From assembly GCA_002423485.1 (NCBI GenBank), contig DIWH01000081.1, positions 11,612 to 75,611 on the forward strand: DNA of 64,000 nucleotides, written 5' to 3'. Positions within the stretch are counted from its first letter, which is position 1; every line of letters starts with the position of its first letter. A program made the translations under genes and the position numbers. The stretch is from Candidatus Xenobium occultum. Lineage in GTDB: Bacteria > Vulcanimicrobiota > Xenobia > Xenobiales > Xenobiaceae. The notes under the pieces are model-generated. The model was not told the DNA's origin. It worked only from the letters and a program-made list of their open reading frames with translations, and made no database searches. Of this stretch, positions 3,590 to 64,000 are shown piece after piece.

Positions 3590-3751
3590 GCCTCCGGACT
3601 CTCGGCTGCCGGCGCGTCGGATGCGGGCGCCCGGACGTTCGCGGGGGAATTCCTGCCTCCTCCGCCCCGAGGGAAGATGACCCCCTCCGGGGAAGGGCGG
3701 TCCGGTCCGGGGGACAGGGATTCGGGGAATCGGATGGGGAATGGGCCGGGC

Positions 3752-37542: not shown

Positions 37543-37543
37543 T

Positions 37544-41656: not shown

Positions 41657-41814
41657 GATCTCGCCTTGCAGTCGAATCCATCGTGAATACCCGTGTCGAC
41701 AGGGGGCTTCGGCTGCTCTTCGCGGGCGCTTATGACCTTCATCATTGTTCGTCGGGCTGTCCCTGAAGGATGCTGGAGTGGTCTTCAGCGCATGAGTCGG
41801 GAGGGAGGGCACCC

Positions 41815-48418: not shown

Positions 48419-48878
48419 ATTCCCCGAAAGTCTGTGCGAAATCACTTGCGTTCGCGTTCCCGGAGCGGCGTTCCCTCAAAATCCATCCCGAGTGGCCCAT
48501 GGCAGGCCCTCGCGTGTGGAGTCTGGGGGCGCCCCGGATGGACGCTGGCGGCTTGTGCGAGGAGCGGAAGCGCTCGTCAAGCAGGTGCCCCGGACGGCCC
48601 GGGTCGGCCGTCTCCCCGCGTGGAGACGTGGCCCGCCCGATAGACCCGGCCTCTCCTGGGGAGGGGCGCCGGGTCGGCAGGTCCGGGACTCGGTCCCCTT
48701 GACCGGGGACAGGCCGTAGACACGCAGCGGCAGGTGGGTCCTTCTCGACAGGTGCCCTGCAGGCTGCGCGCGGCCGACCTTGGATTTTTTGGAACCGGCC
48801 GACTTCGAGCCTGCCTGCTCCAGGGCTGTTTCGGCCTTGGACCCTCGGACCTCCGGTTCCTGGAGGATTTTTCGACCC

Positions 48879-50999
48879 ATGCCGATCCGATGCGCGCGGG
48901 GGACGAAGGATGTCCTGCCCGCCGAGATTTCTACATGGCATTTCCTGGAAGACCTGGCCCGAGATCTGGCCGAAGACTATGGCTACCGCGAGATCCGCAC
49001 TCCGATGTTCGAGTATGCTGAGATCTTCCTCAAGGGGATGGGAGCCACGGCCGGACTGGTGGAGCGCGAGTTGTGGACCTTCCACGACAAGCATGGTCGC
49101 AAGTTGGCCCTCCGGGCCGACATGACGGCCCCCACCATGCGGGCCTGTCAGGACCATGCCCTGGTTCAACCTGAGCTCGGACCGACCCGTCTGTACTACC
49201 TGGGGTCGGTCTTCATGCACGGCCGGGAACGCGAGGTGGAGAGCCGTCAACTTCACCAGTTCGGGATGGAGGCCCTGGGCACCCGGGACCCTGCCCTGGA
49301 TGCCGAGGTCCTGGTGATGGTCTCGGACCTGTGCACGGCGTTGGGCCTTCCCCAGGTCGAGGTTCAGTTGAACACCCTGGGCTGCAAGAAATGCCGGCCG
49401 GCCTACCACCAGGTCCTGAAGGACTACTTCGGGGGGCGCCAGGACGAGCTGTGCAAGACCTGCAGGCGACGTTACCGTACCCACCCGACCTGGACTCTGG
49501 CCTGCCAGGCTGAGCCCTGTCTGGAACTCTCGCGGGTGGCTCCCTCGATCTACGGGACCCTGTGCCCGGACTGTCGCGAACATTTCTCGGCTTTGAAGAC
49601 CTACCTCAAAGAGCTCAAGGTCGACTATCAGTTGAATCCCCTGGTGGTTCGTGACCTGGAGTATTACGATCGGACCATCTTCCAGGTGACCTGCGCCGGA
49701 CGCCCGGTGGCCTTCGGGGGGCGCTATGACGAGCTCTCGACGGTGTTGGGAGGCCCACCCACTCCGGCGGTCGGCTGCTCGGTGGACCTCGAGCCGCTCC
49801 TGGAGGCGATGCGCGAGGCCGGCCTGGAGGCTCCCGGGCCCGAGCCACCCCGGGTTTGCCTGGCAGGCAACGGGCAGGAGGCGGTGGCCTTGCTTCTGCC
49901 GATCGTCTATGCCTTGCGTCGGGCGGGGGTCGGGGCCGACCTGGTCTACCCCTCCAAGCCTGAGGAGACCGCCGTTCAGGCCGCGGACCGGGCCACCTCG
50001 CCCTGGTTGGTCCTGCTGGAGGAGGAGGACGTGCGTCGTCGCGTCGTGACCCTGGTGGAGGTCGACAAACAGCGTCGGCAGCAGGTGCGCCTGGAAGAAG
50101 CCGTCTCGCGAATCGGTCGGGAACTGGGCCTGGAGGGACTCAAGGACGAGCTGCGTCCCGTCGAGGTCCGCCGGCTCTCCATCGGCCGGCGCCGTCGACC
50201 CGTGCGCAGTCGGGCCATGTACGGAGCGGATATCCCCCGGCTTTCGCGGACGTCGTCCTCTCGAGCCGAATCGGCCGAGGAGGCCGAACGCACCCGCCGC
50301 CGTCGTCGCCGCCGCTCGGGGAAGGGCGAAGAGGCCGAGACGCCCAGGCAGGGTTCCGCCGAAGAGCCGACCCGGCGCAACCGCAAACGCCGCCGTTCGC
50401 GGCGCGCCACCGAGACCACCCCGGCTGAAGTGGAGTCGGCTGCCGGGAGCCTGGATGCGGCCGCCCCGCAGGAGGGCTCCCGCCCAGAGACCTCCGAGAG
50501 GCCCCGTCGCTCTCGAAGGCGTCGCCACGAGTCAGAGGATTCGCTGGAGGCAGCCGCGGTTTCGGATGTGCCCTTGGAGACCTCGGCGGCCGGAGCCTCG
50601 GAGGAGTCCCCCAGACGCTCGGGTCGGGGCCGTCGGCGTCGCTCCGCTCCACCTGCGGGAGACCCGGTGGAGCCCTCCGCAGCGGAGAGCGCGGCCGAGG
50701 AAGTCTCCGGGACGGGTTCGGACGAGGAGTCCACGGGGACCCGTCGCCGTCGGGGCAGCCGTCGGCGCTCACGCCGGGGTGGTTCCCGGGGATCGGGAGC
50801 CGCCGAGGAGGCCCCTCGGAGTTCGGATTCGGAGGCTGGCTCCCAGAGGGAGGGGCCAGCGCCTGCACCCAACGGAGAGCGACCCTCCCCGGCGGCGGGA
50901 GATGCTCCTGAAGTCAAGCCCGCCAGGTCCCGGCGTCGCCGGGCTCCCAGAACCAAGGCGCAGGGTGGGGAATCGACCCCGTCCGGGGAGGATTCGTGA
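48879..50999 (+). CDS. hisS: Histidine--tRNA ligase with roughly 275-aa Arg/Ser/Glu-rich low-complexity C-terminal extension
   Basis: HisRS class II motifs (ARGTKD, ALRADMTAPTMRA, GGRYDEL) and anticodon-binding domain ending near aa 430. The same frame continues 275 aa (RRRRRRRSGKGEE...). Its stop overlaps the accB GTG (GTGA). Confidence 0.75.
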   Translation: MPIRCARGTKDVLPAEISTWHFLEDLARDLAEDYGYREIRTPMFEYAEIFLKGMGATAGLVERELWTFHDKHGRKLALRADMTAPTMRACQDHALVQPELGPTRLYYLGSVFMHGREREVESRQLHQFGMEALGTRDPALDAEVLVMVSDLCTALGLPQVEVQLNTLGCKKCRPAYHQVLKDYFGGRQDELCKTCRRRYRTHPTWTLACQAEPCLELSRVAPSIYGTLCPDCREHFSALKTYLKELKVDYQLNPLVVRDLEYYDRTIFQVTCAGRPVAFGGRYDELSTVLGGPPTPAVGCSVDLEPLLEAMREAGLEAPGPEPPRVCLAGNGQEAVALLLPIVYALRRAGVGADLVYPSKPEETAVQAADRATSPWLVLLEEEDVRRRVVTLVEVDKQRRQQVRLEEAVSRIGRELGLEGLKDELRPVEVRRLSIGRRRRPVRSRAMYGADIPRLSRTSSSRAESAEEAERTRRRRRRRSGKGEEAETPRQGSAEEPTRRNRKRRRSRRATETTPAEVESAAGSLDAAAPQEGSRPETSERPRRSRRRRHESEDSLEAAAVSDVPLETSAAGASEESPRRSGRGRRRRSAPPAGDPVEPSAAESAAEEVSGTGSDEESTGTRRRRGSRRRSRRGGSRGSGAAEEAPRSSDSEAGSQREGPAPAPNGERPSPAAGDAPEVKPARSRRRRAPRTKAQGGESTPSGEDS

Positions 51000-51424
51000 A
51001 GGACAAGTTGGAGATGGTGCGCTCTCTGGCCCGGGTGCTGCGGGAAGAGGGCCTGACCGAGCTGGAGTATGAGAACGAGGATCTGAAGGTGCGCCTGTCG
51101 GCAGAGCGGGAGGCCTCGACGGCAGCCCCACTGCCCATGGCCACGGTCCGGCCCGTTTCGCCCGCGGCCGAAGCCGAAGCTCCCGGCACCTCCATCCCCT
51201 CGCTTCTGGCCGGGGTCTTCTACCGGGCTCCCTCACCGGGGGCGGCTCCCTTCGTCCAGGAGGGGGACACCGTGGCTTGCGGGCAGACGGTCTGCATCGT
51301 CGAAGCCATGAAACAGATGAACGAGATCAAGGCCGAGGATGCCTGTCGGATCCTGAAGGTTCTGGTTGACGACTCCCAGGTGGTGCAGGCCGGCCAGCCT
51401 CTCTTCCGGATCGAGGCGCTCTGA
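50996..51424 (+). CDS. accB: Biotin carboxyl carrier protein (BCCP, AccB-like); no accC downstream
   Basis: Biotinyl-lysine motif CIVEAMKQMNEIKAE, Pro/Ala-rich linker. Confidence 0.8.
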   Translation: MKDKLEMVRSLARVLREEGLTELEYENEDLKVRLSAEREASTAAPLPMATVRPVSPAAEAEAPGTSIPSLLAGVFYRAPSPGAAPFVQEGDTVACGQTVCIVEAMKQMNEIKAEDACRILKVLVDDSQVVQAGQPLFRIEAL

Positions 51425-51451
51425 GCGTTGTCCTGCGGGCTGCGGGGCCGG

Positions 51452-52666
51452 TCAGGGGCGCTCGACCACCATCGAGAAGCCCGGGTCGTAGGGAAGCCGG
51501 GTGTTTGTGACCAGCCGGAAGCCCGCCTCGGAAAGGACCCGGAGGATCTTCTCCTGGTCGGTGTCGGCCCGGAATCCTTCATGGATGGCCAGGCGACCTT
51601 TCGGGTTCAGTGAGTGCACCAGGTTGGGCAGCATCTTCTGGCGGAACCAGCCGAGGGTGCGGTTGCACACCAGGTGGACATCTTGCATGACCATCACGTC
51701 GATCTCGGGGACTCCGGGATTGTCGGGCGCGAGGGCCATCCGGAATTCCAGGCGGGGGGCCAGCGCCCGGAATTCCGGGCGCGTCCTGGTGTACTCGACG
51801 AAATCCCCCAGGCTGGAGTCGATTTCCACCACGTAGACCTTGCCGGTGGGGCCGACCCTCCGGGCGGCCTGCCAGGCCAGAAGGCCCAGCCCCCCTCCCA
51901 CTTCCACGACCCTCTTGCCTTCCAGGTTGCCCAGGCGATCCAGCAGCGCTTCGTTGGGCGGAACGTTCTTCGCCGAGAATCGAGTGCCCAGACCTCCGCC
52001 GAGCTGGGGGAAGATTTCCCGTCTGGCCCCGAGTTCTTGGCGCTGGCGGATGAACTCCGCGGCGGATTGCCGGGGATTGGCGAAGATGAAGTCGTAGCAG
52101 ACCGTCTCGTAGGGGTCCAGGTCCTTCTTGCGATGCTCGCCCTCACCCAGTTCCTCGGTCAGGTAGGTCAGGTAGAGAACGCTCTGGAAGCGGATGCCCC
52201 TGCCGCTCCCGGGATGGGGAATTCCGGGATTGGGGATCTTCAGAAGATCTCGCGCCTCCTCCATGCGGCCCCGCAGGGCCGCCCGGTCTTCCGGTCGGGA
52301 TTTCAGGTATTCCAGGAGGATGTTCTCGGCGGCCGTTTCCGAGGGCAGCGAACCCAGGGCAAAATTCTCGGTGGACGGACCGGGGGGCGAGGTGGACATG
52401 GCCGAGGCTCCCTGAGCGAACGGGCCGGGAGGTTCCGCTGGCGAAGGAGAGGGCGCCAGGGCCTGCAGGGTCTGGTGGATGGCCACCCCAAGCAGGAGCG
52501 CCAGCATGAGGCCCCGCCAGACATTGTTGAGGCTGGACGCCCTCGGAGACCTGGACGCACGTCCTGGCTGCCGGTGGGAGCCGGAATTCGGGCTGGTCGC
52601 CCCGGGTTCCGTCCCGAGGGAGACCGGGGAGGGCCCCTGGGAACAGGAATCCGGGTCAGCTTTCAT
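51452..52666 (-). CDS. Class I SAM-dependent methyltransferase with roughly 220-aa N-terminal extension and signal/TM segment
   Basis: VVEVGGGLGLLA (GxGxG SAM motif) in the C-domain. N-terminal LMLALLLGVAIHQTLQALA hydrophobic segment. Start ATG 52666; the 718-aa ORF is over-extended. Confidence 0.7.
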   Translation of the reverse strand: MKADPDSCSQGPSPVSLGTEPGATSPNSGSHRQPGRASRSPRASSLNNVWRGLMLALLLGVAIHQTLQALAPSPSPAEPPGPFAQGASAMSTSPPGPSTENFALGSLPSETAAENILLEYLKSRPEDRAALRGRMEEARDLLKIPNPGIPHPGSGRGIRFQSVLYLTYLTEELGEGEHRKKDLDPYETVCYDFIFANPRQSAAEFIRQRQELGARREIFPQLGGGLGTRFSAKNVPPNEALLDRLGNLEGKRVVEVGGGLGLLAWQAARRVGPTGKVYVVEIDSSLGDFVEYTRTRPEFRALAPRLEFRMALAPDNPGVPEIDVMVMQDVHLVCNRTLGWFRQKMLPNLVHSLNPKGRLAIHEGFRADTDQEKILRVLSEAGFRLVTNTRLPYDPGFSMVVERP

Positions 52667-52707
52667 CGCAGTCCCCTTCCTTTTCATTGCCTTCTGGTCT
52701 GGAAGCC

Positions 52708-54876
52708 TCAGGTTCGCCTTCCGTCCAACATCAGATCCAGGTCGCGCGGTCGGGGGACGGCCGGCTCGCGGGCGTCCCAGTTGATCCACAGGTAGAGGGT
52801 GGCCGGCAGTGTCAGGGTGGTGAAATAGCGAAGGCGCGAGGTGGGCTGAAGTCCGCGGCCCTCGCTCCAGTGCCATCCTCCGAAGGGTCGCATCTGGCCG
52901 CGGGCATGGTTGTAGCGGAAGCGGGTGGGGAAGATCGGGTTGATCCGGGCGTGGAGGCGTTTGCCCCGGACCAGGCATCCCATGTCTCCCCGCATCAGGA
53001 TGTCCATGTGGGGAGCCAGCAGGAGGTTCGTCTCCACCATGGCCTCGCCCTGGCCCTCGAAGCGATCCCGCACGATGACGGTCTTGGCGTTGGGCCGGAA
53101 GAGGACGTCGCGGTGCAGAGGCCAGGCCTGGTCGGGCCCTGACCAGATGGCTCGGGTGGCGGAGAACAAGACTCCGCCTTCGCGCTCCTGCATGCGCACT
53201 TCCCGACAGGCCGGGTGCCCCTCGGGGAGTGCTCGGCAGACCAGCGGCTCGGGCTCGCCCTGAAGGCGCGGGGCAGAGTGGTAGCCGACGCGTGACAACA
53301 AGTGGCTTGCAGGGCTCTGGAGAGGGGGAAGCCCGGGCTCGATCAGGAAGGGCTCGCCATCCAGGACCAGGCAAAGGCTCAGCGCGTCGTCGTGGTGGGA
53401 AGGGTTCTCGCGTTCGGGGGGTGGCAGCACCCGGCCGTCGTGGAAGCCACCTGGGGCGGGGGCCCCCCGCAGCAGACACCAGGATGCCTTGCCCTCCCAG
53501 TGGTCGCGAGCGCAGGTCAGCCCCACCTCGCTGAAGAGCCTGCGATTGGTCCCCGGATCCTGGTTGTGCAGGCCGTTGTACTGCTCGGCGGCCCCTGGAC
53601 CGCACCACCAGTACAGTTCACCCGGCATCTCCCGATTCGGTGCCCGGAACTCTCCGCGGCGCAGGGTCAGGGCGCCGAGGGCCAGCAGTCGGCGGCCGTG
53701 CTCGGAAGACCCACAGTTCCATCCCAGGAATCCCGGCGAGGCGCTCTGGCCCAGGTCGGGCACCAGACCGGCCGGGGGGCGCAGGTGGTTGAGGGCGTCC
53801 AGGGAGGCGGTGGCAGCCTCGGTCAGTCCCGCCGGCGGAGCCGTGCGGTTCAGGAAGTGCAGGGTCAGCGGCAGGAGCAGCCACTCGGCGGCCAGGCGGT
53901 GTCGGGCCACCGAGCCGGACCGGTGCAGTCCGTCGCGTCCCAGTTCCCAGGCGGCCGATCGGGCCAGGGCGGATCCGGCCAGGTCCAGCCAGCGACGCGA
54001 CAGCAGCATCTCGGGCATGCTCAAAGCCAGGATGTACAGACCCGAGGCGGCGGCCAGGGGGGCTTGCTCCGAGTTCCGGACGAACCAGGCCAGGACGGCC
54101 CCGTGCAGGACCAGGCAGGACACGATGCGTGCCAGCAGGTCGGGGGTCAACTGCTCGGAACCCAGGAACATGTGCAGGGCCAGAAGCCAGTTGGTGCAGC
54201 GAGCGGCCACGGTCTCGGGGTCCAGCCAGTTGACGCCCTCCAGGGGGCGGTTGCGTTCGCTCCAGTCCACGACCTGGACGATGAACTCGCTGGCGAAACG
54301 CTCGTATCCGGTCAGCCAGTAGGCCCTTCCCATCTGGACGAAGTGCGAGTGGCGATTGAACTCCCAGGTCACCGCGATGGGGCCCATCTCCACCGTGGGC
54401 ATCGGCTGGCGGCCGGCAAACTGCTCGCGCAGGTCCAGCAGGTGGGCGCGCCCCCAACTGTGATCCCGGAAGTCCGAGAACCAGTCGATGGTGCCGCCAA
54501 AGGACTGCGGCTCCACCCCCAGGGGAGAGAAGCGGTGGGCCAGCAGGTCTTCGGTCCCCTGCAGGATGGCCCGGCAGTCGGTGGGATGCTGTTCGAGCCG
54601 GGGGCGAAGCAGATGGGGCTCGGAGTAGTGCAGGAAGAAGATCGGCCGGATCCGGTCGTGGAAATGCTCCAGGAACGCTTCCGCGGCCAGATCCAGCCGG
54701 CCTCGTCGGGCCTGCCCCCGGGCCTCGTCGGTGCCCGGGGTGCCGGCGAACTGGGCATAGAGATCCTCACCCTCCAGACGAAGCGAGGCTCGCTCCTCCA
54801 GACAGCGGGCCAACCGCTGCTCGAGGTCGAGGGGATTGGGACGCCTGCCCAGGCGCCGGCGCAGCCACCCGAACAT
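52708..54876 (-). CDS. Heparinase II/III-like (alginate-lyase fold) protein
   Basis: Size and N-terminal alpha/alpha-toroid then C-terminal beta-sandwich pattern of the Hepar_II_III family. Call is by overall similarity, not a single motif. Confidence 0.55.
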   Translation of the reverse strand: MFGWLRRRLGRRPNPLDLEQRLARCLEERASLRLEGEDLYAQFAGTPGTDEARGQARRGRLDLAAEAFLEHFHDRIRPIFFLHYSEPHLLRPRLEQHPTDCRAILQGTEDLLAHRFSPLGVEPQSFGGTIDWFSDFRDHSWGRAHLLDLREQFAGRQPMPTVEMGPIAVTWEFNRHSHFVQMGRAYWLTGYERFASEFIVQVVDWSERNRPLEGVNWLDPETVAARCTNWLLALHMFLGSEQLTPDLLARIVSCLVLHGAVLAWFVRNSEQAPLAAASGLYILALSMPEMLLSRRWLDLAGSALARSAAWELGRDGLHRSGSVARHRLAAEWLLLPLTLHFLNRTAPPAGLTEAATASLDALNHLRPPAGLVPDLGQSASPGFLGWNCGSSEHGRRLLALGALTLRRGEFRAPNREMPGELYWWCGPGAAEQYNGLHNQDPGTNRRLFSEVGLTCARDHWEGKASWCLLRGAPAPGGFHDGRVLPPPERENPSHHDDALSLCLVLDGEPFLIEPGLPPLQSPASHLLSRVGYHSAPRLQGEPEPLVCRALPEGHPACREVRMQEREGGVLFSATRAIWSGPDQAWPLHRDVLFRPNAKTVIVRDRFEGQGEAMVETNLLLAPHMDILMRGDMGCLVRGKRLHARINPIFPTRFRYNHARGQMRPFGGWHWSEGRGLQPTSRLRYFTTLTLPATLYLWINWDAREPAVPRPRDLDLMLDGRRT

Positions 54877-54877
54877 G

Positions 54878-55993
54878 CTATCCCACCGGGGCGGGCGCGG
54901 GTGAGAACGCCTTCAGGGCCCCCAGGACGGTCTCGATCTGCTGCTCGGTGAGTTCGGGGAACATCGGCAGCGAGAGGACCTCCGCCTGGGCCTTCTCGCT
55001 GACCGGCAGCGAGCCGGTCGACAGCCCTTGGTGGGAGAAGGCCTTCTGCATGTGCAGGCACACCGGGTAGTAGATCACCGCGCCGACGCCCGAGGCCTGC
55101 ATGTGCTTCTGCAGGGCATCCCGGTCCGGGGCACGCAGGGTGTACTGGTGGTACACGTGTTCGCAGCCTTCCTTCTCGGTGGGCGGCGTGGCGTAGGTTC
55201 CCCGCAGACCGGCCGTGTAGGTCGCGGCAATCTCTCGGCGTCGGAGGTTCCAGGCCTCCAGGTGGCGCAGCTTGACCCGCAGGACGGCGGCCTGGATCTC
55301 GTCCAGTCGGCTGTTGGTTCCCACCATGTCGTGGTAGTAACGGACCTTCGAGCCGTGTCCGCGCAGCATCCGCACCTTTTCAGCCAAATCGGGATTGCTG
55401 GTCAGGACCATCCCGCCGTCGCCGATCCCGCCCAGGTTCTTGCTGGGGAAGAACGAGAAGCAGCCCAGGTCTCCCAGGCTGCCCGCGCGGCGGCCCTTCA
55501 GGGTGGCTCCGGTGGACTGGGCGCAGTCCTCGACCAGGCCCAGGCCGTGGCGCCGGGCGATGGCCTGCAGCTCTTCCATGGGAGCGGGGTGCCCATACAG
55601 GTGGACCGCCACGATGGCTCGGGTGCGGGGCGTGATGGCCGCCTCGACGCTGGCCGGATCAAGAGTGTAGGTCTCGGGATCGATGTCGGCAAAGACCGGA
55701 GTCGCTCCCGTCAGGGCCGCCGCGCCGGCCGTGGCCACGAAGGTGAAGGAGGGGCAGATGACTTCGTCACCTGCTCCCACGCCCAGGGCCCGCAGGGCCA
55801 GGTGCAGGGCGTCGGTCCCGTTGCCGACACCGGTGCCGAACTCGGCCCCGTTCCAGGCTGCGAATTCGGCCTCGAAGGCCTCGACCTCGGGTCCCAGGAT
55901 GTAGTGGGTGGATCGCAGGGCGCGCAGGGCGGCTTCCTCGACCTCGGTCTTGATCTGGGCGTATTGGGTGGACAGTTCCAGGATGGGGATCAT
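54878..55993 (-). CDS. DegT/DnrJ/EryC1/StrS family sugar aminotransferase (WbpE/WlbC-like)
   Basis: PLP-dependent fold with FSFFPSKNLGGIGDGGMV (Lys in SKN). Confidence 0.85.
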   Translation of the reverse strand: MIPILELSTQYAQIKTEVEEAALRALRSTHYILGPEVEAFEAEFAAWNGAEFGTGVGNGTDALHLALRALGVGAGDEVICPSFTFVATAGAAALTGATPVFADIDPETYTLDPASVEAAITPRTRAIVAVHLYGHPAPMEELQAIARRHGLGLVEDCAQSTGATLKGRRAGSLGDLGCFSFFPSKNLGGIGDGGMVLTSNPDLAEKVRMLRGHGSKVRYYHDMVGTNSRLDEIQAAVLRVKLRHLEAWNLRRREIAATYTAGLRGTYATPPTEKEGCEHVYHQYTLRAPDRDALQKHMQASGVGAVIYYPVCLHMQKAFSHQGLSTGSLPVSEKAQAEVLSLPMFPELTEQQIETVLGALKAFSPAPAPVG

Positions 55994-56057
55994 CGTCTTG
56001 GCTACCTTCTATCTGGGCTCCAGAGAGCGGCTGAGCCGCTTCTCGGCCCCCCCGGTT

Positions 56058-56909
56058 TCAGGACTTCTTCTGGGCGCTGAGCAGTTGTTCGGGTGGTGTG
56101 GGGCGCACCACCCGGGCGGGCACCCCGTAGGCCACCTTCATGGCCGGAACGGCCCGGGTCACCACCGACCCGGCTCCCACGACGGCCTCCTCGCCGACCT
56201 CGACGCCGGGAAGCAGCACCGCGCCTCCTCCGATCCGGCACCCCGAGCGCAGCACGCATCCTTTGCGGTGCTTGAAGCGCTCTTCGGTGCGGGCCAGGTA
56301 GTTGTCGTTGGTGGTGGCCACCGCCGGGGCCACGAAGATGTGGTCCTCCAGGGTGGACAGGGCCGTGATGTAGACCTCGGCCTGAAGTTTGGTGGATTCG
56401 CCGATGGTCACGTCGTTCTCGACGGTGGCCCCGCGGCCCACGATCACGCGCCGGTCCAATCGGCAGCGCTCGCGGATCGAGGCCAGGTCGGCGACGAAGA
56501 CCTCTTCGGCCAGGACCGTCCCGGCGTAGATCACCGACAGGGCCCCCACTGTGCACCCGGGCCCCATCGTCAGGGGAGGCAGTTCACCGGCGGCCTTCAG
56601 CGTGCTGGTGGAAGCCGTGGTGGGCAGTTTGCCGAGGATCGTGTGGTCTCCCACCAGGCTTCGGGCGCCCACCCGGGTGCGGGGGTGGATCACCACGTGG
56701 GAACCCAACCGGACTCCGTCCTCCAGGACGGCCCCCTCGCCGATCACCACATGGGAGCCGATCTCAACTTCGGCGCCCAACCGGACGCCGCGATGAAGAT
56801 GACAGAAGGGGCCGAGGCGGCAGCCCGGCTCGATCCGGACGTCGGCCTCCACCACCGTGAAGGCGGGAAGTTCAAGGTCTGCAGGCAGTTGTGCTGAGGC
56901 GTCGATCAA
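56058..56909 (-). CDS. Left-handed beta-helix (hexapeptide) sugar N-acetyltransferase (WbpD/WlbB-like)
   Basis: Multiple hexapeptide repeats (IGEGAVLEDGVRLGSHVVIHP...). Confidence 0.8.
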   Translation of the reverse strand: MIDASAQLPADLELPAFTVVEADVRIEPGCRLGPFCHLHRGVRLGAEVEIGSHVVIGEGAVLEDGVRLGSHVVIHPRTRVGARSLVGDHTILGKLPTTASTSTLKAAGELPPLTMGPGCTVGALSVIYAGTVLAEEVFVADLASIRERCRLDRRVIVGRGATVENDVTIGESTKLQAEVYITALSTLEDHIFVAPAVATTNDNYLARTEERFKHRKGCVLRSGCRIGGGAVLLPGVEVGEEAVVGAGSVVTRAVPAMKVAYGVPARVVRPTPPEQLLSAQKKS

Positions 56910-57906
56910 GGTTGTTCTCCTCCAGGACCTTCCAGGTTCCCCCGTCGTGCAGTGACTTCGTCGCGGCCTCCAGGACCTGCACCACCTGGTGGCCCAGGGT
57001 GCCCCCGCTGCGGGGGCGCTTGCCCGCGCGCACGCAGTGCAGGAAGTGGCGGCATTCCCGAGCCAGGGGCTGCTCGGAGGCCAGTTGTGGAAAGCGGTCG
57101 GTTCCCGAGACCATGAGACCCTTCACCGGGTCGAAGCGCCGGTCGGTGACTCGCAGGCGGTTGTGGGGATTCAACTCGTCCACCACGGCCATGCCTTTGC
57201 GCCCCACCACCGTCAACCGGCGCTCCATGCCGGGATCCAGCCATGAGAACTGCGCCGCGGCGATCCGGTTCCCGGGAAAACGCAGTTCCAGGAAGACCAG
57301 GTCCTCGATGCCCGGCTGAAGCCAGGCCTGCCCGAAGCAGTGCACCTCGGTGGGCATCTCGCCCAGCAGGAACAGGAAGACGGCCACGTCGTGCGGGGCC
57401 AGGCTCCACAGCACGTTCTCGTGCTTGCGCACCCGGCCCAGATTCACCCGGCGGGCCTGCAGGTAGAGGATCTCGCCCAGGGTGCGGGCCTTCAGGACGG
57501 CCTTGAGCTCTTCGATGGCCGGCATGAACAGGGGGAGATGGCCCACCATCAGCGTCCGCCCCCGACGCCGGGACAACTCGACCAGGTGCTGGGACTCCTC
57601 GCTGGACAGGGCCATGGGTTTTTCCAGGAAGACCGGGAAGCCGGCCTCCAGGGCGCGGCGGGCCAACGGGTAGTGGGTCACCGCCGGGGTGGCGATGGCC
57701 ACGGCTTCGAAGGCGCCCTCGGCCAGGGCCTGGTCCAGCGACTCCCAGACGGGGACCTCGGGATAGGTGCCCCGCGCCTCGGCCAGCAGGTTGGGATTGA
57801 TCTCGCAGATCCCGCTCAGGGCTTCGAGGTCGTGGAAGTTGCGGATCAGGTTGCGGCCCCAGTCCCCGGCTCCCAGGACCAGGACTCCTGCACCGGGCTG
57901 TTTCAT
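56872..57906 (-). CDS. Gfo/Idh/MocA family oxidoreductase (WbpB/WlbA-like UDP-GlcNAcA 3-dehydrogenase)
   Basis: Rossmann GAGDWG and EKPMALS motifs. Start ATG 57906 in ATGA overlap with the upstream gene. Confidence 0.8.
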   Translation of the reverse strand: MKQPGAGVLVLGAGDWGRNLIRNFHDLEALSGICEINPNLLAEARGTYPEVPVWESLDQALAEGAFEAVAIATPAVTHYPLARRALEAGFPVFLEKPMALSSEESQHLVELSRRRGRTLMVGHLPLFMPAIEELKAVLKARTLGEILYLQARRVNLGRVRKHENVLWSLAPHDVAVFLFLLGEMPTEVHCFGQAWLQPGIEDLVFLELRFPGNRIAAAQFSWLDPGMERRLTVVGRKGMAVVDELNPHNRLRVTDRRFDPVKGLMVSGTDRFPQLASEQPLARECRHFLHCVRAGKRPRSGGTLGHQVVQVLEAATKSLHDGGTWKVLEENNLDRRLSTTACRP

Positions 57907-59258
57907 CGCGCCTTCCCATCCTGGTTCGGAGCGCCCAGTCGGGTGATTCCCTTGAGGCTCTCCAGGCCCCGGGTGACGCCGCGGGTGTCCACCAGGCGTC
58001 GGCTGCGCGCGGCGATCTCCGCCAGATCGTAGGTCGAGTGGTCGGTGGCCAGGACCACGCAGTCGTAGTCCTCCAGGTTCGCGAGGTCGACCGATTGCAT
58101 CTCGGTGCCCGAATGGCAGCGGAAGGTCGGGATCAAGGGGTCGTGGTAGTCCACCCGGGCACCCCGGTTCCGGAGAATTTCCAGGACCCGCAGGGAGGGC
58201 GACTCGCGAGGGTCGGCCACGTCCTTCTTGTAGGCCACCCCCAGCACCAGCACCCGGGCCCCCTTCAGGCCCTTCTCGCCCAGGGCCTCGACCACCAGGC
58301 TGACCACGTGGTAGGGCATGCGGGTGTTGATCTCCCCGGCCAGTTCGATGAACCGGGTCTGGTGGTCGAACTCGCGGGCCTTCCAGGTCAGGTAGAAGGG
58401 GTCCAGGGGGATGCAGTGCCCGCCGATCCCGGGGCCGGGATGGAAGGGCATGAAACCGTAGGGTTTGGTGGAGGCCAGCTCGATGATCTCCCAGACATCC
58501 AGGCCCATCTCGCGGCACAGGATGGCCAGCTCGTTGACCAGGGCGATGTTCACGCTGCGGAAGATGTTCTCGAAGAGCTTCTCCATCTCGGCGGCCCGGG
58601 TGGAGGTGGCCCGCTTGACCAGGTCGGGACGGTCCAGCATGCGCGAGTAGAGCAGAGCCGTCAGATCCCCGCAGGTGGGGGTCAGCCCGCCCACCACCTT
58701 GATGGTGTTGTAGGTATTGTAGTTCGGGTTCCCGGGGTCCACCCGTTCGGGCGAGAAGGCCAGGAAGTAGTCCTCGCCGGCCTGCCGGACCCGTCCTGCG
58801 GCTTCCAGGGCGGGGCGGACCACCTCCTCGGTGGTTCCCGGGTAGGTGGTGCTCTCCAGGACCACCAGGGTGCCCGGGCGGATATGCTGACCGATGCGCT
58901 GGCTGACGTCCTGGACGTAGCTGATGTCCGGCTCGCGGTTCCGGGTCAGGGGCGTGGGCACGCAGATGATGATGGCGTCGCAGGTCTCCAGGACCGAGAA
59001 GTCCCGACCGGCGTGCAGGCGCTCGGCTACCAGGGGCTTGAGTTCGTCATGGTGGCCGTCGATATAGTCGAAGCCTTCCGACAGCAGGCGAACCTTTTCG
59101 GCGTTGTCCTCCAGCCCTTCCACGGCGAATCCCCGACGGGCGAAGCCCATCGCCAGGGGAAGCCCCACGTATCCCAGGCCGATCACGGCCACCCGGGCGG
59201 TCCCCTCCTGGATCTTGCGCCGCAGGGCCCCCGCCAGGTTCTGCTCCAGGTCAATCAT
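57903..59258 (-). CDS. UDP-N-acetyl-D-glucosamine 6-dehydrogenase (WbpA/WecC family)
   Basis: VAVIGLGYVGLP NAD motif and catalytic Cys context GGHCIPLDP. Confidence 0.85.
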   Translation of the reverse strand: MIDLEQNLAGALRRKIQEGTARVAVIGLGYVGLPLAMGFARRGFAVEGLEDNAEKVRLLSEGFDYIDGHHDELKPLVAERLHAGRDFSVLETCDAIIICVPTPLTRNREPDISYVQDVSQRIGQHIRPGTLVVLESTTYPGTTEEVVRPALEAAGRVRQAGEDYFLAFSPERVDPGNPNYNTYNTIKVVGGLTPTCGDLTALLYSRMLDRPDLVKRATSTRAAEMEKLFENIFRSVNIALVNELAILCREMGLDVWEIIELASTKPYGFMPFHPGPGIGGHCIPLDPFYLTWKAREFDHQTRFIELAGEINTRMPYHVVSLVVEALGEKGLKGARVLVLGVAYKKDVADPRESPSLRVLEILRNRGARVDYHDPLIPTFRCHSGTEMQSVDLANLEDYDCVVLATDHSTYDLAEIAARSRRLVDTRGVTRGLESLKGITRLGAPNQDGKAR

Positions 59259-60303
59259 GTCGATACCCCTCTAGCACTTCCGCAATTCGCTCCGCAGCGT
59301 GCCCATCCCCGTACAGGGGCGGCCGGTCCTGAGGAGGCCTGAAGCCGTCAAGCCCCTCCAGGACCCGTTGCGGGTCCAGGCCGACCAGGCGATTCCAGCC
59401 GACCTGCACCGTCTCCACCCACTCGGTCTCTTCGCGCAGGGTCAGGCAGGGAGTGCCCAGGAAGTAGGCCTCCTTCTGCAGTCCCCCGCTATCGGTCAGG
59501 ACCAGCCGGGCATGTCGGGCCAGACCGAGCATGTCCTGGTGTCCCACCGGATCCATCAGACGGAGCGCACCATTTGTCAGACGGTCTTCCCACCCCTGCT
59601 GCCGGATCATCTTTCGGGTCCGAGGATGGCAGGGGAAGAGGATCGGTTCCCGGTGGGCCGCCAGGGCCTGAAGGAGTGGTTCCAGGCGGTCCCACGAGCG
59701 GGTGCTCTCCTCTCGATGCAGGGTCATCACCAGGTAGGGCTCCTGGGGCCTGGGGAAGGTGCTGCCGCGCTCCAGGGCCGCCCGGGTGGCGTCCAGCATC
59801 AAGTCCCCGACCTGGTGGACGCCTCGGGTGATCCCCTCGCGGGCCAGATGCTCGACGGCCACCTGACTGGGGGCGAAGAGCAGCGTCGAGAGGCGGTCGG
59901 TCAGGACCCGGTTGATCTCCTCGGGCATCGGCGCGAAGCTGCGCAGTCCGGCCTCGACGTGGGCTACGGGCAGGTGCAGTTTGGCGGCGGCCAGGGCGGC
60001 GGCCAGGGTGGAGTTGGTGTCCCCGAAGACCACGACCATCTCGGGAGGCTCGGCCAGCAGGACCTCTTCGATCTTCTCCAGCATCCGGCCGGTCATGGCC
60101 CCGTGGCTGGCGCTGCCCACGCCCAGGTGGTGGTCCGGGGCCGGCAACCGCAGCTCCTGGAAGAAGACCTCCGACATCTCCTGGTCGTAGTGCTGGCCGG
60201 TGTGGATCACGCGGGGCTGGCAGAAGCGCGGCAGCAGACGGGCCAACGGGGCCAGCTTCACGAACTGGGGTCGGGCTCCGACCACCAGCGTCAGGCGTCT
60301 CAT
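59251..60303 (-). CDS. UDP-N-acetylglucosamine 2-epimerase, non-hydrolysing (WecB/WbpI family)
   Basis: GARPQFVKLAP, HTGQHYD, DSGGLQKEA motifs. Confidence 0.85.
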   Translation of the reverse strand: MRRLTLVVGARPQFVKLAPLARLLPRFCQPRVIHTGQHYDQEMSEVFFQELRLPAPDHHLGVGSASHGAMTGRMLEKIEEVLLAEPPEMVVVFGDTNSTLAAALAAAKLHLPVAHVEAGLRSFAPMPEEINRVLTDRLSTLLFAPSQVAVEHLAREGITRGVHQVGDLMLDATRAALERGSTFPRPQEPYLVMTLHREESTRSWDRLEPLLQALAAHREPILFPCHPRTRKMIRQQGWEDRLTNGALRLMDPVGHQDMLGLARHARLVLTDSGGLQKEAYFLGTPCLTLREETEWVETVQVGWNRLVGLDPQRVLEGLDGFRPPQDRPPLYGDGHAAERIAEVLEGYRHD

Positions 60304-62096
60304 TCCGGAACCTCGGTTTCCGCTGACGTTCGCAGGGGCTCGCGCAACTGGGCTTCATAGAGCCGGCTGTAGATGCCGTGCCGGGCCATCAACTGATCGT
60401 GCCGACCCTCTTCGACGATCTGCCCGGCGTCCAGGACCAGGATCCGGTCGGCGTGGCGGATGGTGTTCAGCCGGTGGGCGATCACCAGACATGTCCGCCC
60501 CTCCATGGCCCGGGCGATGGCGTCGGCGATCAGGTTCTCGGATTCGGCGTCGATCCCCGAGGTGTACTCATCGAGGATCAGGATCCGGGGGTCCCGCAGC
60601 AGGGCCCGGGCGATGGCGATGCGCTGGCGCTGACCGCCCGAGAGGCGCAATCCCCTTTCGCCCACCTCGGTCTGGTAGCCGTCCGGCATCCGCACGATGA
60701 ACTCGTGGGCGTTGGCCAGCTTCGAGGCGCGCAGCACCTCCTCATCGGTGGCCGTGGGGCTGCCGCAGCGGATGTTGTCATCGATGGTACCCCCGAAGAG
60801 GACCGATTCCTGGATCACGGTGCCGATCTGGGTCCGCAGCGAGCGCAGCTTGACCTGCTTGAGGTCGTGCCCGTCCACCTTGACCGAGCCGGAGACCGGG
60901 TCGTAGAAGCGCGGGACCATGTTGACCAGCGTGGTCTTGCCCGCGCCGTTGGCCCCGACCACGGCCACCACCTCACCCGGCCGGATCGACAGGTTGATTC
61001 CCCTCAAGACCGGCTTTTCGGGGTCGTAGTGGAAGTGCACGGACTCGAAGTCGATGGCTCCCTGCAGGCGGGGCAGTTCCAGGGCTCCCTCGGGTTCGGC
61101 CACCTCGGGAGTCATGTCCATCAGCTCGAAGACCCGGCGCCCGGCGGCCGCTGCGCTGTTGGCGGTTCCGTAGAAGCCCGACAGGGCGCTGATGGGGTGG
61201 GAGGTCATCACCATCAGGGTCCAATACTCGGTCATCTGGGCGAAGGTCACCTGGCCCTGCATGACGCGCGTGGCCCCGAACCACACGATGGCCACGATGC
61301 CGAAAGCCCCCAGCAGCTCGACCACCGGGGACTGGATGGCCGAGACCTGCACCAGCTTCATCTGGGCGGCGAAGTTGTCCTCATTGCGGCAGGCGAAGCG
61401 GCGGACCTCAAAGTCCTCGCGGGTGTAGGCCTTCACCACCTTGATGGTGGAGATGTTCTCATACAGCAGGGCCGACAGGTCCGCCAGGCGGGCCTGGAGC
61501 TTCTCGGAGCGCTGGCCCATCCGCCGGCCGAAGTTGGCCACGGCCGTGCCCACCAGGGGGCTGATCAGCAAGACCACCAGGGTCATCTGCCAGTCGCGGT
61601 AGAACATCCAGCTCAGGCAGGCCACCACCACCAGCAGGTTCTTGACGAAGTCCGAGAGGGCCATGTAGACGCTGGTGGACAGCAGGATGTCGTTGGAGGC
61701 CCGCGAGTGGATCTCGCCCAGGCGCATCCGGTCGAAGAAGGCCATCGGCAGGCGCTGCAGGTGGGTGAAGACCTGGTCGCGGAAGTCCCGGACCGCCTGC
61801 TGGCCGCCCAGATCGATGGTGTAGCGCTGGAAGTAGGTCGAGGCCCCCATCACCGCCATCACGGCCAGGAAGGCCAGGCAGATCAGGTTCAGGCGCATGA
61901 AGGGGTCCTGGCCGTCCGAGTAGTTGAAGGACTCCTGGGACATCATGCCCATGATCAGGCCCACGAACTTGGCTTGGGACAGGCGCGCGGCGGTCACGAC
62001 GACGGTCAGCAGCAGGGCCCCCAGGACGATCTTCCAGTAGGGCCGGATGTAGCTCAAGAGGCGCCAGAGCACCTGCGCAAGCTGTCGAATCGACAA
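60300..62096 (-). CDS. ABC exporter, fused permease-ATPase (MsbA/lipid-flippase type)
   Basis: Six-TM ABC_membrane domain then Walker A GANGAGKTT, signature LSGGQRQR, Walker B ILILDEYTSGID. TTG start 62096 with GGAGG RBS. The 878-aa ORF is over-extended. Confidence 0.8.
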   Translation of the reverse strand: MSIRQLAQVLWRLLSYIRPYWKIVLGALLLTVVVTAARLSQAKFVGLIMGMMSQESFNYSDGQDPFMRLNLICLAFLAVMAVMGASTYFQRYTIDLGGQQAVRDFRDQVFTHLQRLPMAFFDRMRLGEIHSRASNDILLSTSVYMALSDFVKNLLVVVACLSWMFYRDWQMTLVVLLISPLVGTAVANFGRRMGQRSEKLQARLADLSALLYENISTIKVVKAYTREDFEVRRFACRNEDNFAAQMKLVQVSAIQSPVVELLGAFGIVAIVWFGATRVMQGQVTFAQMTEYWTLMVMTSHPISALSGFYGTANSAAAAGRRVFELMDMTPEVAEPEGALELPRLQGAIDFESVHFHYDPEKPVLRGINLSIRPGEVVAVVGANGAGKTTLVNMVPRFYDPVSGSVKVDGHDLKQVKLRSLRTQIGTVIQESVLFGGTIDDNIRCGSPTATDEEVLRASKLANAHEFIVRMPDGYQTEVGERGLRLSGGQRQRIAIARALLRDPRILILDEYTSGIDAESENLIADAIARAMEGRTCLVIAHRLNTIRHADRILVLDAGQIVEEGRHDQLMARHGIYSRLYEAQLREPLRTSAETEVPE

Positions 62097-62164
62097 GGCG
62101 TGACCTCCATCCTGGCCGTGGGCCCGAACTTCGAAACTCAAGTTTAGGGGGTTGAACCGCTTTG

Positions 62165-64000
62165 TCAAGGAGAGCCGAGGACAGGGGGCCGGGGGCTCGG
62201 GTCGGCGGGGGGCGGTCGCAGGCGGAAGAGCTCGGCCCCGAGACCCGGTTCGAAGAGCCAGGTTCCCAGCGGCTCGGCCTGAAGGTCGGGGCCCCCCGGG
62301 AACGCCTTGCGCCACGCGATCAGGGCCGCGGCGGGCCCCCGGGCGTTCACCTTCCGGCTCACCACCAGGAAGGCCGGCAGGGAGTCGCCGATTTCCGACG
62401 TGGGGATCCTCCAGCTCTGCAGTTCGCCCTGGTCCAGGGGGATGCGGGCCGGGATGCCTCGATAGTTCGCGAAGACCTTGAACCATGAGGGGTGGACCAC
62501 ATCGCCTTCGGCGCTCAGGACCCAGAGCAGGAACTCGCCTTGAGCCCGGGCGTGGGCGCACTCCAGAATCGGAGCCATCACCGGGGGCTGCAGGTGGGGA
62601 AGCTCGGCCAGCAATGGCAGGGGGCGGTTGGGAGCGTGGCTCACCGGAGCGATGCCGGCTCCGACGTAGTGTCGGAGGGGGGGCACGGGGCGCAGCGGCG
62701 CCGGGAGAGCCCAGCCCAGGACCGTGAAGACCCCCCACAGTCCCAACAAGACCGCCACAGCCCAGCGCGCCGGGCGGTTTGGAGAGGCCCATCCCGTGGC
62801 CAACAGGGCGGCGAAGCCCAGCACGTTGGCCAGGTAGATCTCGAACTTCCCCGAGACGGCGTTGATCAGGACGAAGGTCCAGACGAGCATTCCCAGGATG
62901 AAGCCCCGTCCCGGGTCGCGGTCCTCCCGGCGCCATCCGGCCAGCGCCAGGCCCACCCCCAACAGGGCCAGGTGCAGCCCGTTAAAGGATCGGTCCGCCA
63001 TGACATGCAGATAGTAGAGTGGGTCGAACCAGATCGTCCCGTGCAGCGTCCCCTCCAGGGCCGTCCGGACCCGCTCGTCCAGCATGGCGGACAGGTCCCG
63101 GACGCACAGGTAGGGCAGCAGGGTCAGCATCAGGGCGGTGCCGGCCAGAAGGGCGTTGCCGGCCCGACCGCCGGGAGGCCGGGAGCGGTTGGTCCAGGCC
63201 GCCAGGACTGCCAAGGCCAGCAGGGAGCCCAAGGCCACCAGGGGGAACGAGTCGGACCTCCCCAGGGCCAACAGGGGGCCCCGCAGCGCCAGCCAGGCGA
63301 AGGGCGCCGACAACCCGGCCAAGGCCAGGCCGAGAAGGGCCAGGGCCTTCCCGGCGCGCGACAGCGACCAGCGCAGGGGAATCCGGGCGATGAGGAAGGC
63401 CACCGGCAGGATCCACTGGGCCACGAACTCAGGCTTGGTCATGGCCCCCAGGGCCAGGGTCACGCCGAACCAGAACGAGGCCCCCCGCCGGCGCAGGAAG
63501 TCGCTGGCCACCAGCAGCGCCGCGCACAGCAGGGACAAAGCGTGGCTGCCGACCTCCAGGGGATACTCTTTGGTGATGCTGGCGAAGAGCGGCAGGGTGA
63601 AGAGGTACAGGCAGGCCAGGAACCCCGCGCCCGGGCCATACAGGCGCCGCCCCAGGAAGAAGAGCGAGGCGGCGTAGACGGGCAGCCACAGGACCTGGGA
63701 GGCGTTGAGAAGCCCCAGGGCCGGCTGACGCAGGCTGAACAGGGCCGCGGCGGGCAGCAGGCCGACGGGGCCGTAGTGCGAGACCCTCAGCGCCCCGGCC
63801 AGATCCCCCGCGACCAGGTGCCTCCAGAAGTCCAGGGCGTCCCCGGCGTGAATCGGGAAGTCATAGCTGTAGCGGACCTGGCTGTGCGCCAGCCAGGACA
63901 GGTTGTTGAGTCCCAGGACCAGGACCAGCGCGACCGTGGCCGCGGGGGCCAGCCAGGAGGCCGGCGCGGATCCCGCGCGGGAACCGCCCCCCGGGCGCAG
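62165..64000 (-). CDS. Polytopic membrane glycosyltransferase, GT39/GT83 (PMT/ArnT)-like; 5' end beyond window
   Basis: Frame is open from the window edge to stop 62165 with more than 12 TM helices. Resembles dolichyl-phosphate-mannose / undecaprenyl-phosphate-sugar dependent transferases. Confidence 0.5.
   Translation of the reverse strand: MRPGGGSRAGSAPASWLAPAATVALVLVLGLNNLSWLAHSQVRYSYDFPIHAGDALDFWRHLVAGDLAGALRVSHYGPVGLLPAAALFSLRQPALGLLNASQVLWLPVYAASLFFLGRRLYGPGAGFLACLYLFTLPLFASITKEYPLEVGSHALSLLCAALLVASDFLRRRGASFWFGVTLALGAMTKPEFVAQWILPVAFLIARIPLRWSLSRAGKALALLGLALAGLSAPFAWLALRGPLLALGRSDSFPLVALGSLLALAVLAAWTNRSRPPGGRAGNALLAGTALMLTLLPYLCVRDLSAMLDERVRTALEGTLHGTIWFDPLYYLHVMADRSFNGLHLALLGVGLALAGWRREDRDPGRGFILGMLVWTFVLINAVSGKFEIYLANVLGFAALLATGWASPNRPARWAVAVLLGLWGVFTVLGWALPAPLRPVPPLRHYVGAGIAPVSHAPNRPLPLLAELPHLQPPVMAPILECAHARAQGEFLLWVLSAEGDVVHPSWFKVFANYRGIPARIPLDQGELQSWRIPTSEIGDSLPAFLVVSRKVNARGPAAALIAWRKAFPGGPDLQAEPLGTWLFEPGLGAELFRLRPPPADPSPRPPVLGSP

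Follow-up and report, generated by a model that had tools for sequence, protein, structure and literature searches.

In a 64,000-nucleotide stretch of DNA from Candidatus Xenobium occultum (contig DIWH01000081.1, positions 11,612 to 75,611; here called the window), seven minus-strand genes at 52708-62096 form an operon that appears to encode the synthesis and export of an acidic amino sugar and that ends in a gene for a heparinase II/III-like protein (HEP) with a degenerate active site. As we read the sequence, five cytoplasmic enzymes would convert uridine diphosphate N-acetylglucosamine (UDP-GlcNAc) to UDP-2,3-diacetamido-2,3-dideoxy-D-mannuronic acid, abbreviated UDP-ManNAc(3NAc)A, an ATP-binding cassette (ABC) exporter would move the product made from it, and HEP would accompany them after losing the catalytic residues of its family. 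We rate this reading as slightly better than an even chance. The sugar pathway is of a known kind, here in a new phylum. What lacks an explanation, and is mildly novel, is HEP, the degenerate protein that accompanies the aminotransferase.

The genes that a first-pass annotation of this DNA had listed between 51452 and 64000 are all present, nine in number and all on the minus strand. In the order in which they would be transcribed, and with a promoter match between the first two, they are:

62165 to >64000, minus strand: GT-C-like polytopic membrane protein, 623 aa at full length, read on contig L001
62141..62168, minus strand: sigma-70-like promoter match between the GT-C-like and ABC genes
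60300-62096, minus strand: ABCB-type half-transporter, MsbA-like, 598 aa, TTG start, GGAGG Shine-Dalgarno sequence
59251-60303, minus strand: non-hydrolysing UDP-sugar 2-epimerase (Epi), WbpI type, 350 aa; Epimerase_2, E = 9e-99
57903-59258, minus strand: UDP-N-acetylhexosamine 6-dehydrogenase (DH), WbpA/WecC family, 451 aa; all three UDPG_MGDP_dh domains
56872-57906, minus strand: Gfo/Idh/MocA sugar 3-dehydrogenase (Gfo), 344 aa; Pfam GFO_IDH_MocA, E = 1.9e-21
56058-56909, minus strand: left-handed beta-helix (LbH) N-acetyltransferase, QdtC-like, 283 aa; Hexapep, E = 2.4e-32
54878-55993, minus strand: pyridoxal phosphate-dependent DegT sugar C3-aminotransferase, 371 aa; DegT_DnrJ_EryC1, E = 1.5e-124
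52708-54876, minus strand: HEP, 722 aa; Pfam Hepar_II_III_N, E = 6e-17, and Hepar_II_III_C, E = 4e-6
51452-52666 or 51452-52507, minus strand: membrane-anchored class I methyltransferase-like protein, 404 aa (ATG at 52666) or 351 aa (ATG at 52507)

The five enzymes are consecutive and, as the first-pass annotation had proposed, belong to families compatible with a conversion of UDP-GlcNAc to UDP-ManNAc(3NAc)A. Judged by family membership, the Gfo protein, of the UDP-GlcNAc 3-dehydrogenase type, would oxidize C3, the DegT enzyme would carry out transamination, the QdtC-like beta-helix enzyme would add the N-acetyl group, the dehydrogenase of the WbpA/WecC family would oxidize C6, and the WbpI-type epimerase would act at C2; the C3 and C6 steps could come in either order. 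The ABCB-type exporter would probably carry a lipid-linked product over the inner membrane, and the transferases that load the sugar onto lipid would be encoded elsewhere. HEP, the last protein, would serve as a non-catalytic or re-purposed partner and not as a glycan-cleaving enzyme.

UDP-ManNAc(3NAc)A would be the most likely product because the epimerase resembles enzymes for 3-N-acetylated substrates, both in overall score and at a signature Trp. Among solved enzymes, the epimerase matched the UDP-GlcNAc3NAcA 2-epimerase of Thermus thermophilus (8sxv) with 343 bits, the Methanocaldococcus jannaschii enzyme with 286 bits, and Escherichia coli WecB with about 155 bits. In the T. thermophilus enzyme, Trp307 (replacing a conserved Arg), Tyr96, and Ala18 fit the enzyme to a 3-N-acetylated uronate (PMC10622841). 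The epimerase of the window has a REETEW motif that places Trp at the position that is Arg, binding the 3-OH, in UDP-GlcNAc enzymes, and it has Phe93 for Tyr96, a conservative change. The Trp was also present in the epimerases of related operons wherever the motif was found, including operons with only the epimerase and the aminotransferase. These features place the epimerase firmly in the WbpI type, and its earlier assignment as the WbpI equivalent held.

The aminotransferase and the acetyltransferase belong to families that would complete the 3-acetamido group. The best solved relatives of the DegT enzyme were 7b0d (403 bits; deposited as a glutamine--scyllo-inositol transaminase), DesV (366 bits), QdtB (357 bits), and WbpE (316 bits, full length). 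We take DesV, QdtB, and WbpE, which are the top solved matches that carry a name, to be sugar aminotransferases acting at C3, and the proposal that this gene is the WbpE equivalent was borne out at the level of enzyme type. The LbH acetyltransferase had QdtC as its best solved relative (E = 7e-22, 81 bits), followed by two chains whose deposited name is just 'N-acetyltransferase', then a WxcM-like protein and WlbB (3mqg, 55 bits). QdtC and WlbB are presumably N-acetyltransferases for the C3 amine of nucleotide sugars, and the window enzyme would then be in the same functional class as WlbB, yet longer (283 aa) and nearer to QdtC.

The two dehydrogenases were less specific in their matches. The 6-dehydrogenase scored 412 bits with TIGR03026, over the cut-off, and no chain named WbpA was among its solved matches. 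It clearly belongs to the nucleotide-sugar dehydrogenases and by sequence could act on either a GlcNAc-type or a ManNAc-type substrate. The Gfo protein matched the NCBIfam model for archaeal UDP-GlcNAc 3-dehydrogenase (NF040723, Methanococcus type) with 146 bits, under the cut-off of 450, and its best solved structure was 7bvj (83 bits), which we take to be GnnA, a UDP-GlcNAc 3-dehydrogenase. WlbA (3q2k) was matched with 33 bits in the NAD domain alone. These matches suggest a UDP-GlcNAc 3-dehydrogenase type that is not an orthologue of WbpB or WlbA, and the role of WbpB may be filled here by a non-orthologous enzyme. The earlier labels of WbpB and WbpD equivalents for the Gfo and LbH proteins therefore apply to the inferred roles only and not to orthology.

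The pathway as a whole was similar to the Wbp and Wlb systems (WbpA/B/E/D/I of Pseudomonas aeruginosa, WlbA-D of Bordetella, and a cluster of T. thermophilus HB27; PMC10622841), with the same five steps and the same predicted product. The likeness extends to the WbpI-type epimerase, the WbpE-like aminotransferase, and the dehydrogenase of the WbpA/WecC family. Unlike those systems, the window has a 3-dehydrogenase that is no orthologue of WbpB/WlbA and a long QdtC-like acetyltransferase where WbpD/WlbB have about 190 aa, and its operon lacks nearby glycosyltransferases, wzx, and wzy, beginning instead with an ABC exporter and ending with a protein of heparinase fold. The UDP-GlcNAc 3-dehydrogenases (NF040723; 7bvj) were the best family and structure matches of the Gfo protein; unlike them, the Gfo protein falls under the curated cut-off and sits with a 6-dehydrogenase and a WbpI-type epimerase.

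HEP has the fold of a polysaccharide lyase. Its AlphaFold model, built with 41 sequences, had a mean predicted local distance difference test score (pLDDT) of 91 and a predicted template modeling score (pTM) of 0.92, and contained two domains, an alpha/alpha toroid and a beta-sandwich. A Foldseek search with the model placed heparinase III (polysaccharide lyase family 12, PL12) first (E = 4e-24; TM-score 0.57-0.70), and lower matches included lyases of PL33, PL15, and PL17 and human dermatan sulfate epimerase 1, with all of which HEP shares its two-domain fold. With the heparinase III-type lyases and epimerases it also shares a His-x-Asp, a His, an Arg, and an Asp in the C-terminal domain. HEP has no N-terminal hydrophobic segment or signal peptide; throughout the family this end of the protein is charged and helical, and by prediction the protein is cytoplasmic. 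In this it differs from the PL12 enzymes, which are secreted or periplasmic, as it does in the loss of canonical residues and in its place in a biosynthetic operon.

The canonical catalytic residues were replaced in HEP and its close relatives. We aligned 117 wider relatives, 19 close ones, HEP of the window, and a fragment of heparinase III, whose catalytic residues, in the numbering of the heparinase III literature, are Asn240, Tyr294, and His424. In the wider relatives, the His, Glu, and Tyr that match His241, Glu289, and Tyr294 of heparinase III were 95-96% conserved, the position that matches Asn240 was occupied by Asn in 83 of the relatives and by Thr in 28, and four more positions (two Asp, one His, and one Tyr) were 94-97% conserved. 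All eight positions were variable in HEP and in 18 of the 19 other sequences of the close set. HEP itself has Gln271, Ala272, Ser320, and Arg325 at the equivalents of Asn240, His241, Glu289, and Tyr294, and Gln377, Ala379, Ser493, and Leu519 at the four further positions. The alignment near Tyr294 was anchored by shared residues (Asp315-Gly316, Ser322, and His326). HEP keeps His495, Asp497, His533, Arg589, and Asp604; the His of the C-terminal domain near the presumed His424 is thus kept, with the profile alignment setting His495 of the HEP family two residues off the His of heparinase III. The first-pass annotation was correct that a heparinase II/III-like protein is encoded downstream of the enzymes, but this protein has lost the catalytic residues of the family.

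The HEP gene was under purifying selection. Its dN/dS was 0.13, and the enzymes were alike at 0.075-0.13. We considered whether HEP is a pseudogene and rejected this because of the dN/dS value and because the frame is intact in several species. In one related locus (L003, 9478-11648) the HEP gene was split into open reading frames of 627 and 109 aa, by a frameshift or an assembly error. One relative, the 752-aa protein P0063, scored 479 bits with the HEP profile, which is near the degenerate clade, and retained the full canonical catalytic set. P0063 may mark the point at which the HEP clade lost its catalytic residues.

Wider relatives of HEP were fused to glycosyltransferases. The HEP superfamily is large, with 1,297 cluster representatives at E <= 1e-30 in an exhaustive profile search, and annotation look-up for the clusters of the wider relatives gave almost no annotation. 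All eight of the long wider relatives that we examined (P0112, P0114, P0135, P0140, P0076, P0088, P0197, and P0204) were fusions to a GT4 glycosyltransferase, and both domain orders were found. Because of these fusions, the wider or ancestral HEP family would help to assemble glycans in the cytoplasm, as opposed to degrading them. HEP resembles these heparinase II/III-family proteins of glycan biosynthesis loci in architecture; they keep the catalytic residues and the HEP clade does not. Our search of the literature for heparinase II/III proteins beside Wbp genes gave only HepP of P. aeruginosa PA14 and unrelated papers on heparan sulfate; the gene cluster of HepP, PA14R38, is one that we take to be an O-antigen locus. 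In PA14, HepP adjoins a zinc dehydrogenase in this strain-variable cluster (PMC5732420).

Based on its residues, HEP is probably not a conventional lyase or epimerase, and it could be a retained partner that is non-catalytic or re-purposed, such as a sugar-binding or scaffold subunit. A more specific proposal, possible but doubtful, is that a former lyase or epimerase of glycan assembly has been kept throughout the phylum because DegT and the ABC exporter cannot do without it as a partner, and that it either gates or delivers an acidic amino-sugar intermediate or bears a new active site (the MRGDMG motif, R644, and W700). If that were true, the trio of ABC, DegT, and HEP would form an envelope module that defines the lineage and has no described counterpart.

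The seven genes are closely spaced, and their conserved core is ABC, DegT, and HEP. The junctions had been described as overlaps of 4-8 nt, which was accurate for ABC/Epi (4 nt), Epi/DH (8 nt), and DH/Gfo (4 nt) but not for the other three, with an overlap of 38 nt at Gfo/LbH, a gap of 64 nt at LbH/DegT, and a gap of 1 nt at DegT/HEP. A promoter match (TTGACA-16 nt-TAAACT; 10/12, a match to consensus only) falls within the 68 nt that precede the ABC gene and was the sole one in 51000-64000, where 0.6 was expected by chance. On the downstream side, accB and hisS are oriented toward the operon. With the nine proteins as queries we searched about 40 related loci, and from the synteny of about 35 related loci we take ABC, DegT, and HEP to be the core. 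The common arrangement in the phylum is hisS, accB, ABC, DegT, HEP on one strand, and ABC/DegT/HEP was found by hisS/accB in about 20 Eremiobacterota/Xenobia loci. In four loci the epimerase gene lies between ABC and DegT (ABC, Epi, DegT, HEP), a few loci have DegT and HEP alone, and DegT is immediately upstream of HEP in almost every related locus that has upstream DNA. The full run, ABC-Epi-DH-Gfo-LbH-DegT-HEP, was found only in the genus-level lineage of the window (L008, L030, and L040), inverted relative to accB/hisS. L040 is from a sister species, with operon genes 90-95% identical to those of the window. It looks as though the pathway genes were gathered stepwise into the ABC/DegT/HEP core as one operon.

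The related loci were confined to one phylum by title, with a few odd exceptions. Those whose titles bear a taxon were all from Eremiobacterota, Vulcanimicrobiota, or Xenobia except for several metagenome-assembled genomes (MAGs) titled "uncultured Burkholderiales" and one titled "Selenomonadaceae" (L009, L011, L013, L020, and L033-L036). The full-length relatives that carry a taxon label were likewise all Vulcanimicrobiota (Eremiobacterota), mostly of class Xenobia, with oddly titled MAGs again the exception. The MAGs of the two other titles that carry the Xenobia-type locus are probably mislabelled bins.

The exporter is related to MsbA. It matched ABC_membrane (E = 1.6e-52) and ABC_tran (E = 1.1e-33) and is, like MsbA, PglK, and Wzk, a half-transporter with these two domains. 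Among NCBIfam models it scored 511 bits with MsbA_rel (cut-off 780), 497 bits (TIGR02203; cut-off 602) and 407 bits (NF008381; cut-off 867) with MsbA, and 176 bits with PglK (cut-off 1000). The earlier description of an MsbA-type flippase upstream of the enzymes therefore holds in that the best families are MsbA-related, but not in identity, as both MsbA cut-offs were missed.

Several findings weigh against the reading of the operon given above. In the epimerase, Leu17 in place of Ala18 is of the UDP-GlcNAc type, at one of the three signature positions. The best solved relatives of the 6-dehydrogenase were UDP-ManNAc(A) dehydrogenases (4r16, 226 bits; Cap5O, 199 bits), and by sequence the Gfo protein resembles enzymes that act on UDP-GlcNAc and not on UDP-GlcNAcA. 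The exporter is under every curated equivalog cut-off, with MsbA-related families closest, and the operon has neither a glycosyltransferase nor an initiating transferase. As for HEP, the equivalents of the heparinase III residues were placed by sequence alignment and not by structural superposition; the HEP clade has invariant residues of its own (for example, the MRGDMG motif, R644, and W700); and the loss of canonical residues is no proof of lost catalysis.

Some of these findings would fit a different product. The operon could make two separate sugars, with the epimerase and dehydrogenase acting as WecB and WecC to give UDP-ManNAcA, and the Gfo, DegT, and LbH enzymes giving UDP-GlcNAc3NAc and no uronic acid. 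The Gfo protein, nearest to UDP-GlcNAc 3-dehydrogenases and far from WlbA, is consistent with this, as are the UDP-ManNAc dehydrogenases among the best solved relatives of the 6-dehydrogenase, the agreement of Leu17 with UDP-GlcNAc-type epimerases, and the 8-nt overlap that makes the epimerase and dehydrogenase genes look like a pair. We nevertheless think it unlikely, in view of the epimerase, which scored more than twice as high with the UDP-GlcNAc3NAcA enzyme as with WecB, has Trp in place of the 3-OH-binding Arg of all UDP-GlcNAc enzymes, and retains the Trp in operons with only an epimerase and an aminotransferase. It is very improbable that the genes form a lipid A module, in which the exporter is the MsbA of the phylum and the Gfo and DegT proteins are GnnA and GnnB, making UDP-GlcNAc3N for a lipid A backbone of diamino-glucose. 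The top families of the exporter (MsbA_rel and MsbA) and the nearest solved relative of the Gfo protein (7bvj, taken to be GnnA) point that way, and ABC and DegT are conserved by housekeeping genes across the phylum. The phylum, Vulcanimicrobiota/Eremiobacterota, has moreover been described as diderm with lipopolysaccharide, a description made at the level of the phylum and not for the class UBP9/Xenobia (PMC9758169, PMC6664022). However, the exporter falls under both MsbA cut-offs, the WbpI-type epimerase, the 6-dehydrogenase, and the QdtC-like N-acetyltransferase would have no role in a Gnn route, lpx genes are absent from the window, and at most related loci DegT occurs with no Gfo gene.

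Other readings concern HEP and the flanking genes. HEP could be active on a cytoplasmic lipid-linked intermediate, either as a C5-epimerase (ManNAc3NAcA to the L-gulo form) or as a chain-trimming lyase. Its fold is common to lyases and dermatan sulfate epimerase 1, wider relatives are fused to GT4, purifying selection on it is strong, some of its residues are invariant within its clade alone, and there is a precedent in Vibrio, where VpsJ carries out C5 epimerisation of lipid-linked ManNAcA (PMC13463779). Yet the His, Glu, and Tyr, along with two Asp, one His, and one Tyr, all 91-97% conserved in the wider relatives, have given way to variable residues, and the position of Asn240 is variable too, where heparinase III has Asn240, His241, Glu289, and Tyr294. 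This loss makes a role as C5-epimerase less likely, and we regard an active HEP as quite unlikely. The model of the first-pass annotation was that the ABC protein flips a lipid-linked diacetamido-uronic glycan, which a GT39/ArnT-like protein attaches to protein or lipid and which the methyltransferase modifies. In its favor, the genes are neighbors that share one strand, the PMT_2 matches of the membrane protein are weak yet repeated, and this protein is polytopic with a soluble C-terminal domain and has a family-invariant Asp in the loop after helix 1. Against this, the promoter-like site separates the GT-C-like and ABC genes, the operon of the sister species (L040) has no GT-C-like gene, a 69% identical homologue lies elsewhere in L037, the methyltransferase gene occurs in L038 with no operon and evolves fast, and no enzyme for a polyprenyl-phosphate sugar donor is encoded here. 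We consider the model improbable; gene conservation does not support the proposed chain of flipping, transfer, and methylation.

If the operon makes UDP-ManNAc(3NAc)A and exports a product of it, as we favor, the 2,3-diacetamido-mannuronate pathway would reach an almost uncultured phylum. The sugar is known mainly from the O-antigens of Pseudomonas, Bordetella, and E. albertii, and the pathway also from Thermus and archaeal glycans. Here it would have been assembled from parts of mixed origin, namely a WbpI-like epimerase, a UDP-GlcNAc-type 3-dehydrogenase, and a QdtC-like acetyltransferase. HEP would provide a testable case of a polysaccharide-lyase fold re-used in the cytoplasm. The GT4 fusions suggest that many entries named "heparinase II/III family protein" act, when they come from biosynthesis loci, on an assembly line and not in degradation. 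Textbook knowledge is unchanged by these results, and the labels "heparinase" and "GT39" in such loci need caution.

The GT-C-like gene is probably a neighbor outside the operon. Its protein matched PMT_2 with E = 1.4e-3 and 19.3 bits, under the cut-off of 26.1; PMT_2 was matched by five of seven family members, with a best E-value of 1.2e-5. There was no match to PMT (PF02366) or MIR in the protein. It has at least nine hydrophobic helices, about 180 aa at its C-terminus form a soluble domain, and the invariant Asp in the loop after helix 1 is Asp59. Only seven homologues were detectable, the AlphaFold model was unusable (pLDDT 40 with 7 homologues), and a profile search of the PDB found no solved relative of the family. 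In L040, other genes are upstream of ABC, and the homologue in L037 is at an unrelated place. By sequence, "GT-C-like" is a reasonable guess for this protein and "GT39-like" is not established; the glycosyltransferase role that had been assigned to it was not upheld by the weak PMT_2 matches, the promoter-like site, and the arrangements in L040 and L037.

The methyltransferase-like gene is a neighbor and not a conserved member of the operon. Methyltransferase matches of the window protein were sub-threshold, and those of its homologues were to Methyltransf_31, Methyltransf_12, and Methyltransf_25, of which one (P0055, Methyltransf_31, 29.6 bits, E = 6e-7) was over its cut-off of 27 and the others were under theirs. 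A VVEVGGGLG motif is visible in the protein, which has one hydrophobic helix (residues 53-71) followed by a Pro-rich linker. The predicted topology would place the S-adenosylmethionine (SAM)-type domain outside the cytoplasm, which would be odd for a SAM enzyme. In L038 the gene is beside accB/hisS and the operon is absent from the site. Between the window and L040 the protein was 69% identical with a dN/dS of 0.53, compared with 90-95% and 0.075-0.13 for the operon genes, corresponding to evolution that is about four times faster. PADLOC gave a sole match, mad2 (5.9e-9), on this protein. We considered and rejected a defense system here because this match is probably generic, to a methyltransferase domain only.

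The region upstream of the window end had been expected to hold the rest of a glycan locus, and it did not. The first 12 codons of the GT-C-like gene fall past the window end, and beyond them are a divergent Uma2 gene and then variable DNA that differs between contigs. Contigs that extend upstream contain no further glycan genes there, including an initiating transferase, wzx, and wzy. Two otherwise identical contigs have different DNA past window position 64000 (L001 1-6051 and L002 1-6051), and both retain the divergent Uma2 gene. One of the two has NYN, AAA_23/SMC-like, and SNF2-helicase genes, resembling a defense island, and the other has GH1, AIM24, and unknown genes. Elsewhere in the window we found no lpx, wzx/wzy, or glycosyltransferase genes; the content is housekeeping, transport, and pilus genes. 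An Rfam scan of the whole window gave no match.

The G+C content of the window is 65-71%. Metagenome contigs from cultures that were hydrocarbon-degrading or methanogenic (JGI 3300002498 TOLCLC_10005265 and others) encode an identical epimerase protein, and a fragment in the MAG "UBP9_UBA1432" shared 95% identity with HEP. The hisS gene (48780-50999, plus strand) encodes a seemingly disordered C-terminal tail of about 270 aa with a high content of Arg, Ser, and Glu, and HisS is also long in relatives from the phylum (620-706 aa). The window further contains type II secretion/type IV pilus genes (T2SSF, T2SSE/MshEN, and a second T2SSE-like ATPase, at 25987-27054, 35740-37578, and 41770-42894), a D12 Dam-type DNA methyltransferase gene (18168-19022), and a gene for a 938-aa protein with a spermine-synthase domain (1058-3871).

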